Assembly: GCF_058153355.1 (NCBI RefSeq)
Contig: NZ_JBLWLY010000002.1
DNA: 64,000 nucleotides
Source: a plasmid
Strand: one strand, 5' to 3'
Positions 21,904 through 24,900 of this stretch are shown here, one piece after another. Every line of letters starts with the position of its first letter. The first letter of the stretch is position 1. Made by a program: the position numbers.

Positions 21904-24900
21904 TTACTTTAATAAGTATAAGATTTAATATAAACAGATTTAATTTGTATTGCTTTGACGGTATACAGCCTTTAGAACTTCTGCGCTTATTTCTATTTGT
22001 AAAACTTTTGTTGATTCATTAAATATTTTATCGTAGACGGAACTGGATACTAGATTTGTAAGATCCTTCATTTGTGTGTTAAACAAATCCATGTCACTGC
22101 TATAGCGTTTTAAAATCTTTGCTCTGAGGCCAGATGAGGCAATCTCGTTTAGTGCTGTATGACTGATAGATGTTTGTGCTGATTTTTCATCAAGTTTTAT
22201 ATCAGGGAATTTTTTTTCAATAGCTGCAAATATGTTTTTTTTGTTATCTGAGGTTAAAACAACTCCATTATGTATGGCCATTTCATCTATACTTCTGTTT
22301 ATCATTGAAGAGACATAAGAGGTTCGCTCTTGGCTCATCCAACAAAATAGTTGATTCCCCGAATTACTATCTTTTATTTTGTCTATGACGCTGTCCCTGA
22401 TTTTATTTATATTCACCGGGCATCCAAAATTCTTCTGAGGAAAGCGTTGTTTTAAGTTAAAAACAGATAATATTTTCTTTACAAGCTTATTGTGATTTAA
22501 CGAATTAAATGATGGGCGAGGAATCGCGAATTCAACCTGTGGAAGTATTTTGTTTAGAATTTGCATGATACCCCCTATATGTTAGTTCACTTCTGAAGTG
22601 ATGTTTGCAATGGTTAGTTTAATACAAAATAAAAATTCATACAAAGATTCAATGAGTTCATCAGGTGAAAGATATTTTTTGTAGTGTTTCCTGGTCAAAA
22701 CACATTGATGAGTATCAGGGAGAAGACAGATAGAAGAACCATAATCTCTACTCAAAGAGTAGTTAAGGATGAGTATGTGTTCTGGATTAATAATATTTTC
22801 TGTAAAAAGTTCATGTTCATTAAGAAGTCCGGTCAAAAAGATGTATTCATCATTATCTGTTATACAAACTGGTATTTGTTCTTCGAGCAATATAAAGGCT
22901 TGATTTTTATCGTTAAAATCAAGCTTTGCACCTGTTATTTCATAAAGTTTATCATATAGTTTGCGACACATTTCTATGGCCTTCTATATATTAGAATGAG
23001 AGTTATTCAATAAAATCTTATTGACCTGTAATAAGTCGTGAATGTAAAGTTTGGTTCCAAGATCTGGCGATTTAAGAGAATTGTAATAATCAATAGTTTT
23101 TATTGATTTTTCGATAATTTCTTCTTTTTTATCTGTTGCTTCGGTTTTTAATTCGTTTAATACACGAGTCATATTGCTGGGTGCTGATTTTACTAAGTAT
23201 GAGTGGCAAGCGTTGATGACCGCATCAAAGTCTTCTGAAGATACATTTTCAGTAGGATGTTTGTAAAGTGAAATTGATAAAGGCTTGAATGTTTTTGGTG
23301 TGTGGATAAGGTTAATTTTATTGAAACTTTTAAGATAGCTGCGTCGTAATTGAGTCAATCTGGAAAGATCAAAATCAGATTCAATATATTTCATTATCTC
23401 GTTATAAGACTGATTGAGATTTTCAATGCGTTGCCTAACTTTATTTGCATACGCGTATACATCGTTAGGTGTAGCAACCAATTTAACGTCAGGGAGTGGA
23501 AAGTATATTTCAGAATTTCCTGCTTTAAGAACATTAAGTGCCATACCAGCACAGTTTTCAGATTTACTGATTAATTTATAATTTGCCAATTGTCTGAAAG
23601 CATCTGCTTTCTTTTTGCATATAAATTTTGACATGTTTGTTTCATCAAGGCCAAAAAGGTTATAGCTGATTTTACCATCCTTTGTTTTATTATCACCTGA
23701 TAATGGAATGTATACTTTATCAGCACTGACCCCCCAATAACCATAGGGGTCTTTTTTTTGATTAGCTCTAGGAAAAAATATTTTTTTGTTGTTATTTTGA
23801 TCTTGTTTTGAATTTAATAAGTTTCTAACCTCTTGGCCTGCATCAAGTCTTTCGGCTGTTTGGTCTGAAATCATATTTAGTTTGTCTTGTTTATAGGTAT
23901 CGACACTGTAACCTGAGCGTTTTTCAAAAAGGTAGTTTATTTCTGTATCTTTTGTAACATCCCCGCCGGGATACCAGCTGAGATAGGTATGAGTTGGTTC
24001 CTGTAGTAAATTGTTTTTTATACTGATACTAGTATGCCCTAAATGGGTTATGCCTCTATTTCCCCAGCAACGAAAAACTAAATGTCTTTCAAGATTTTTG
24101 GCTGTACCGATGCCATGAAAACGCTCTGCGGTATTCAACATTAATTTGATGTCTTTACCTGTGAAAGAGTGTTGAATTGAGTTTTTAGCTGCTTCATAGG
24201 CGGCAAACGCACTTTCTGCAGATTTTTCGCTAGCTAATGTATTGAGGAAAAGCAATAAGGATTTTTGATTCGCTAGTCGATAATTTTTTAGTTGTTCATT
24301 TAATATCTGTGAATTTATCTTTGCATTAATAGTGCTTAATGTTCTGAAAAAGAGATCCTTTAGCTTGAATTTCTGTGCTATCAATATAGGTCCATGCTCT
24401 GTATCTTCAACGCGTATAGGCCCTTTTGTATTGCTTGCGTCAATGAAATTGCTAATTTTGAGGATCATACTTTATTAACTCTCCATTACTTGGTGATTGT
24501 GGGGATGTAAAATGTATTTGATATATAATATATTCAATTAATAAATTTAGAAACTTGAGCCTGTTAACATAATCAAATTTTCTTTTGCTGTACATAATAT
24601 GTACCTCGTGAGCATATGTAGTGCTCGTTTCATCATGAAATCCCACAAGTTAAAGTGTCTGATATATCAGGCTCGGAGTGTTATAGAAAAAGAGAGAACC
24701 CTGTTGAATAAGTATCTTTTTTGTTGTAAAACGAGGTACAAAACTGCAATCAATGCCCCATTTATGACTGAGGATAATTAAATGCACATAACTAATTTGG
24801 GATTGCATCAGGTTTCGTTTCAAAGCGGAGATTCCTATAAAGGCGCAGAAGAAACCGGAAACCAAAAAGGTGTAAGCGTGATTTCATATCAAAGAGTTAA

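Follow-up and report, generated by a model that had tools for sequence, protein, structure and literature searches.

A VirB-binding inverted repeat between icsB and ipgD on a Shigella/EIEC invasion plasmid: identity with virS(icsB) and probable mode of action

The ipa and mxi-spa operons of the Shigella invasion plasmid begin at two divergent genes, icsB and ipgD, and the DNA between them contains a short inverted repeat. The question raised by this locus is whether the repeat is the sequence from which the ParB-like protein VirB counteracts silencing by H-NS, whether both of its halves are needed for this and whether a single site of this kind serves both operons. The DNA analyzed here is a stretch of 64,000 nucleotides from a plasmid (NCBI RefSeq assembly GCF_058153355.1, contig NZ_JBLWLY010000002.1); this whole stretch is referred to as the window, and all positions are counted from its first letter.

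The window corresponds to the entry region of the Shigella/EIEC pINV invasion (virulence) plasmid, with the gene order virB, ipaADCB, ipgC, ipgB1, ipgA and icsB, followed divergently by ipgD, ipgEF, mxi and spa. A query of 651 bp spanning the repeat (24300–24950) matched 113 plasmids with 95–99.1% identity, 103 of them from Shigella and ten from E. coli, as well as eight EIEC plasmids in a set of 5,426 complete E. coli genomes. The matches at 99.1% are plasmids of S. dysenteriae, S. boydii and EIEC; for most plasmids of S. flexneri the identity lies in the 95–99% band. Complete identity over these 651 bp was not seen for any entry of the plasmid collection or of the complete E. coli genomes, the best value being 99.1%, so that the pINV variant of the window is absent from those collections.

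Some larger features of the window concern the architecture of the plasmid. With respect to the entry region, the icsA(virG)–virA block (56743–61782) is turned round compared with S. flexneri pCP301. In the window, the block lies downstream of the spa genes, and its minus strand carries icsA and its plus strand virA; in pCP301 the strands are exchanged, with virA on the minus and icsA on the plus strand. This difference appears to reflect a rearrangement of the plasmid that was probably mediated by IS elements. A pair of ORFs of 390 and 266 amino acids at 45249–47218 has the sizes and arrangement of IS21 istA/istB, a pair that is annotated in S. sonnei pSS_046 at another position. A second pair of nearly equal size (391 amino acids at 2189–3364 and 266 amino acids at 6651–7451) appears to have been split by about 3.3 kb of inserted sequence.

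The repeat and its published counterpart

The features on which the analysis is based are as follows.

14215–15144, minus strand: virB, an intact ORF of 309 amino acids encoding the ParB-family protein that binds the site
22984–24468, minus strand: icsB, an ORF of 494 amino acids, named from the annotation of homologous plasmids; VirB-dependent target
24469–24781, no strand assigned: icsB–ipgD intergenic region, 313 bp with 31.6% G+C and the VirB site roughly at its center
24525–24553, minus strand: candidate icsB promoter, predicted by a relaxed consensus scan with 8 of 12 matches
24623–24645, plus strand: 23-bp stretch GCTCGTTTCATCATGAAATCCCA, identical to the published virS-icsB-for oligonucleotide
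24627–24641, no strand assigned: virS(icsB), the inverted repeat GTTTCAT-C-ATGAAAT, assigned from the sequence, the published boxes and the identity to the oligonucleotide
24627–24633: box1, ATGAAAC as read on the minus strand
24634: spacer C, between box1 and box2
24635–24641: box2, ATGAAAT
24782–26398, plus strand: ipgD, an ORF of 538 amino acids, named from the annotation of homologous plasmids; divergent VirB-dependent target

The repeat, GTTTCATCATGAAAT, was read directly on the plus strand at 24627–24641, which are exactly the coordinates and letters that had been put forward in the original prediction. Its arms GTTTCAT and ATGAAAT are complementary at six of seven positions across a 1-nt gap (C), and the sole mismatch is the outermost arm pair (G/T) of the 15-bp repeat. 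The start codons of icsB and ipgD lie 159 and 141 bp from the site, respectively, in agreement with the roughly 160 and 140 bp that had been predicted. The first of these genes opens the ipa operon (icsB-ipgA-ipgB1-ipgC-ipaBCDA) and the second opens the mxi-spa operon, the product of the latter being named inositol phosphate phosphatase IpgD in homologous annotated plasmids. The G+C content of the region between them is below that of the entry region (34%), and this low value marks it as the kind of DNA that is silenced by H-NS. The site thus stands in AT-rich DNA upstream of a VirB-dependent, H-NS-silenced promoter, the dependence on VirB and H-NS being taken from the literature.

Two other kinds of signal around the repeat were set aside. 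Small ORFs at 24452–24646 (minus strand) and 24599–24781 (plus strand) are without an annotated counterpart in any homologous record and were regarded as non-genes. An Rfam scan of 24300–24950 returned only the eukaryotic snoRNA SNORD127 at 26.7 bits, below its gathering score of 45, which was taken to be a chance match.

The 15-bp repeat is the already known site virS(icsB), at which VirB (InvE) binds upstream of icsB on the pINV plasmids of Shigella. The icsB site was described as box1, 5'-ATGAAAC-3', and box2, 5'-ATGAAAT-3' (Gao et al., 2013; PMC3905869), and these are the window sequence read on its two strands, which makes the two the same site. Furthermore, among the supplementary primers of Jakob et al. 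(2024; PMC10770331) is virS-icsB-for, with the sequence GCTC-GTTTCATCATGAAAT-CCCA, corresponding base for base to window positions 24623–24645; this oligonucleotide served in VirB binding, crosslinking, HDX and CTPase assays. Identity to an experimentally VirB-bound site is therefore found both in the 23-mer and in the two boxes, and the earlier call of a candidate VirB box among the divergent promoters of icsB and ipgD, although not new, was correct: the candidate is the characterized VirB site.

For icsB, EMSA or footprinting is on record in the literature, as is mutation of the half-sites read out with a reporter; the site is required for icsB activation, and loss of VirB binding and of VirB-dependent promoter activation on mutation of the site has been published for the identical sequence in S. 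flexneri and S. sonnei (PMC6410309; PMC3905869; PMC10770331). A co-crystal of VirB with the icsB site is available (PDB entry 3W3C; Gao et al., 2013; PMC3905869). Multiple VirB dimers load in a CTP-dependent and virS-dependent manner and then slide off the site, and this loading was shown on a 215-bp fragment of the icsB–ipgD intergenic region (PMC10770331). In addition, virS(icsB) DNA raises CTP hydrolysis by VirB approximately twofold (Antar & Gruber, 2023). A caveat to the mechanism comes from the same study, in which the closure of VirB clamps and the entrapment of DNA in vitro showed little dependence on virS at physiological salt. Given this published work, there is no new biology in the site itself.

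The comparison with known Shigella pINV plasmids leads to the same identification. The 15-mer, its 23-bp context, its position between icsB and ipgD and the presence of an intact virB are all the same, and the site itself is without difference. The intergenic region of the window differs from that of S. flexneri M90T pWR100 at four positions outside the site, and from that of S. dysenteriae Sd197 at one.

VirB and its relatives among the ParB proteins

The gene for VirB lies about 9.5 kb from the site in the same window. In a comparison with the PDB, its translation matched the crystal chains of the VirB HTH domain (3vwb, 3w2a and 3w3c) with an E value of 1.4e-73 and P1 ParB (1zx4) with an E value of 2e-28, and its identity to the ParB proteins of P1 and P7 is 41–42%. 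Arg93, Arg94 and Arg167 are retained; the first two are involved in CTP binding (PMC10770331), and the third reads the bases and makes the only base-specific contact (PMC3905869). An intact cognate VirB gene, as judged from the 309-residue ORF and these three residues, is thus present on the same replicon as the site.

A known site compared here is virS(icsP/ospZ), ATTTCAG-T-ATGAAAT, which has the same near-perfect 7-1-7 repeat, an identical box2 and 12 of 15 bases in common, and which likewise serves divergent H-NS-silenced promoters. The two sites differ in distance: the action of the icsP site is exerted over more than 1 kb from upstream, and the icsB site is about 120 bp from the icsB transcription start site. 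They also differ in how they have been studied, in that most of the spreading, roadblock and supercoiling experiments belong to the icsP site and not to the icsB site.

The 15-mer of the published icsP/ospZ site also occurs in the window itself, as ATTTCAGTATGAAAT at 63942–63956. This putative VirB site lies about 2.2 kb downstream of virA (60544–61782) beside IS remnants, and copies are present in S. sonnei pSS_046 (positions 5643–5657 of the record segment examined) and in pCP301 (positions 6740–6754), in the latter case between an IS91 ORF and a reverse-transcriptase remnant. It is probably the match that was described as 'upstream of a putative transposase' by Karney et al. (2019; PMC6410309).

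The partition site of P1 was compared using the annotated ParB-binding boxes downstream of parB (positions 2459–2465 and 2467–2473 of the P1 par-region record). Its boxes A2–A3, ATTTCAA-G-GTGAAAT, have the same 7-1-7 layout and share 11 of 15 bases with the icsB site, including the TTTCA and TGAAAT cores. The elements of a P1 parS box A pair, namely inverted heptamers, a 1-bp spacer and a ParB-family HTH protein, are thus all found here. P1 ParB and VirB are homologous and both of the ParB type, for which the CTP-dependent loading-and-sliding mechanism has been described. However, P1 parS includes box B hexamers, additional A boxes and an AT-rich center bent by IHF, and it functions in partition together with ParA; none of this is needed at the icsB site. 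P1-type flanking parS elements were not found in the sequence surrounding the icsB site and no parA/parB genes lie alongside it; instead of box B, an IHF site, a parAB operon and a role in partition, there is a position between two virulence operons. The two proteins also differ in their handling of DNA, as VirB bends the AAAT tract and P1 ParB does not (PMC3905869), and the output at the icsB site is transcriptional anti-silencing, whereas that at P1 parS is plasmid partition. In function the site resembles a ParB loading site, and the lack of an adjacent parAB and the transcriptional output indicate that it is not a centromere.

Control of the icsB promoter and probable control of the ipgD promoter

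The best explanation of the locus, which we hold to be almost certainly correct, is that virS(icsB) is a loading site from which VirB, acting as a CTP-dependent clamp, relieves the silencing of icsB and, very probably, that of ipgD. The claim in the original prediction that ParB-like VirB lifts H-NS silencing from a parS-like inverted repeat agrees with the literature in this respect.

On the icsB side, the geometry can be compared with published values. The relaxed promoter scan gave a candidate icsB promoter with a −35 element TTTCTA (24553–24548), a 17-bp spacer and a −10 element TATTAT (24530–24525), which would place the transcription start site near 24518 and the center of the VirB site at about −116. 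This is consistent with a 2016 review, which puts the VirB site upstream of the icsB transcription start site by about 120 bp, and the same review quotes an H-NS footprint from +60 to −220 relative to that start site (PMC5192488). At the standard threshold, the scan returned no promoter on the minus strand for icsB and none downstream on the plus strand for ipgD, and the relaxed scan likewise gave no candidate for ipgD. By eye, a weak candidate for an ipgD promoter may be seen in TTGAAT (24704–24709) and TAAAAC (24727–24732), separated by a 17-bp spacer.

On the ipgD side, a single central virS is likely to govern both divergent operons through bidirectional spreading of clamps, and it is its action on ipgD that we infer. 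The main alternative is that the site serves icsB only, ipgD being activated from another VirB entry site or by an indirect route such as transcription-coupled supercoiling from the activated icsB promoter. The 2016 review states that it 'remains unclear' whether ipgD needs the same sequences, adding that this is 'unclear ... but likely' (PMC5192488), and in the literature searched control of ipgD is asserted and no mutagenesis of the site with an ipgD reporter was found. The scan of the window for the VirB consensus found no further match with up to one mismatch near ipgD, a negative that is compatible with an indirect route, and H-NS-silenced promoters are known from the literature to respond to transcription-generated supercoiling. 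However, the site is roughly central in the 313-bp region and H-NS covers the whole of it (PMC5192488), VirB clamps spread both ways from virS (PMC10770331), and at ospZ/icsP one site serves both divergent genes (Dorman, 2018). Furthermore, in two papers (Jakob et al., 2024, PMC10770331; Dorman, 2018) the icsB site is said to regulate both promoters. Taken with these points, a role confined to icsB is unlikely. The levels of the IpgD protein are VirB-dependent in proteomics (PMC10770331), an observation that has no bearing on which site is used.

A separate feature of the same region is a perfect 7-1-7 palindrome, GTACATA-A-TATGTAC (GTACATAATATGTAC), at 24590–24604. It stands 23 bp from the VirB box on its icsB side and so separates the box from the candidate icsB promoter. 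This palindrome occurs once in the window and is invariant in eight pINV lineages, a region too conserved for this to be informative; there are 13 perfect 7-1-7 palindromes in the window, so that this one may be due to chance. That it binds a second factor that could modulate or block the spreading of VirB towards the icsB promoter is a very doubtful proposition.

Box pairing, chance and anti-silencing

A further question is whether the inverted repeat as such is the functional unit. In an alternative, half-site model, box2 (ATGAAAT, 24635–24641) alone would be functional and the repeat incidental, with VirB nucleating as an oligomer on one heptamer and then wrapping and polymerizing. The crystals show VirB on box2 only and mutation of box2 abolishes specific competition (Gao et al., 2013; PMC3905869); in earlier work by Taniya (2003) and by Turner & Dorman (2007), quoted in two later papers (PMC6410309; PMC3905869), box2 was likewise the only box needed. 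However, the crystallized protein was the isolated HTH core without the dimerization domains, and two shifts are produced by the VirB core on icsB DNA, as would fit the occupation of each box by one HTH (PMC3905869). With the in vivo binding tool of Karney et al. (2019; PMC6410309), the icsB site needed both boxes, neither box1 alone nor box2 alone being bound by VirB, and lone heptamers from the virA, spa15, virB and virF promoters were insufficient as well. HDX and crosslinking, moreover, indicate that paired DNA-binding domains on the repeat promote dimerization of the N-domain (PMC10770331). Sufficiency of box2 is accordingly improbable, slightly more so than a role of the site in icsB control only, and a VirB dimer on the paired boxes is the preferred reading.

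The repeat was also considered against the background expected by chance. Inverted 7-1-7 repeats with at least six of seven pairs are frequent, 159 occurring in the window compared with 100 ± 11 in shuffles and three in the icsB–ipgD intergenic region alone; palindromy was for this reason rejected as evidence for the site. The letters themselves are more specific, the exact 15-mer and the exact 23-mer being expected 3e-4 and 2e-9 times, respectively, in a window of this composition. The published VirB consensus, ATTTCWY-N-RWGAAAT, consists of inverted heptamers (A/G)(A/T)GAAAT placed 1 nt apart (PMC6410309). With up to one mismatch, this consensus (ATTTCWYNRWGAAAT) has three matches in the window compared with 0.43 expected, and none of 100 shuffles reached three; the icsB site conforms to it with one mismatch, the outermost base of box1.

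Besides the icsB site, the consensus is matched by the copy of the icsP/ospZ 15-mer at 63942–63956 and by a sequence with one mismatch, ATTTCATGATGAAAA, at 37805–37819 inside spa47/spaL (ORF 37647–38939), about 160 bp past the start of the gene; a match in spa47 was listed as an in silico prediction by Karney et al. (2019; PMC6410309). A relative of the icsB site with two mismatches, GTTCCATGATGAAAT, lies at 8759–8773, adjoining IS sequence upstream of the ipaJ–virB segment, and was rejected as likely to be due to chance, since its TTTC core is broken and 0.51 such occurrences are expected.

Conservation was examined in an alignment of eight pINV lineages (S. flexneri 5a, 3a and 64-5500, two of S. 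dysenteriae, S. sonnei, EIEC and the window). No variation was seen in the 15-bp site, but the intergenic region as a whole is 98.4–99.7% identical, and with ten variable columns in 313 only about 0.5 changes are expected in 15 bp. Conservation was therefore set aside as uninformative support. A blastn search for more distant homologs of the intergenic region in 72,556 plasmids found none below 98.4% identity, and hence this collection offers no informative outgroup.

That the repeat is a chance AT-rich palindrome without function in this plasmid, as the abundance of such repeats and the uninformative conservation might suggest, is in effect refuted already by what has been published on binding, structure and reporter activity for the identical sequence. 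It is also opposed by the 23 bp shared with an experimentally validated site (PMC10770331), by the enrichment of the consensus over shuffles and by the intact state of both flanking genes and virB.

The course of events proposed for the VirB loading site is then as follows. At or below 30 °C, the AT-rich icsB–ipgD region is coated by H-NS and both divergent promoters are silent. VirB is produced at 37 °C, and a CTP-bound VirB dimer sets its two helix-turn-helix domains on the two half-sites. The dimer would close to form a sliding clamp, leave the site and diffuse along the flanking DNA, allowing further dimers to load. The resulting large VirB–DNA complexes are proposed to bend and stiffen the DNA, to remove negative supercoils locally and to remodel the H-NS complex; a bend of about 22–24° at the A-tract is seen in the VirB crystal (PMC3905869). 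Destabilization of the H-NS complex would make the icsB (ipa) promoter permissive and very probably the ipgD (mxi-spa) promoter too. The supercoiling and spreading steps are those that we infer for the icsB site from icsP, at which the supercoiling and roadblock (directional spreading) experiments were done.

The binding of VirB at this site turns on the ipa operon and very probably the mxi-spa operon, and with them Shigella invasion, and the locus represents a textbook case in which a partition protein together with its centromere has taken on a new role as a CTP-dependent switch against silencing.
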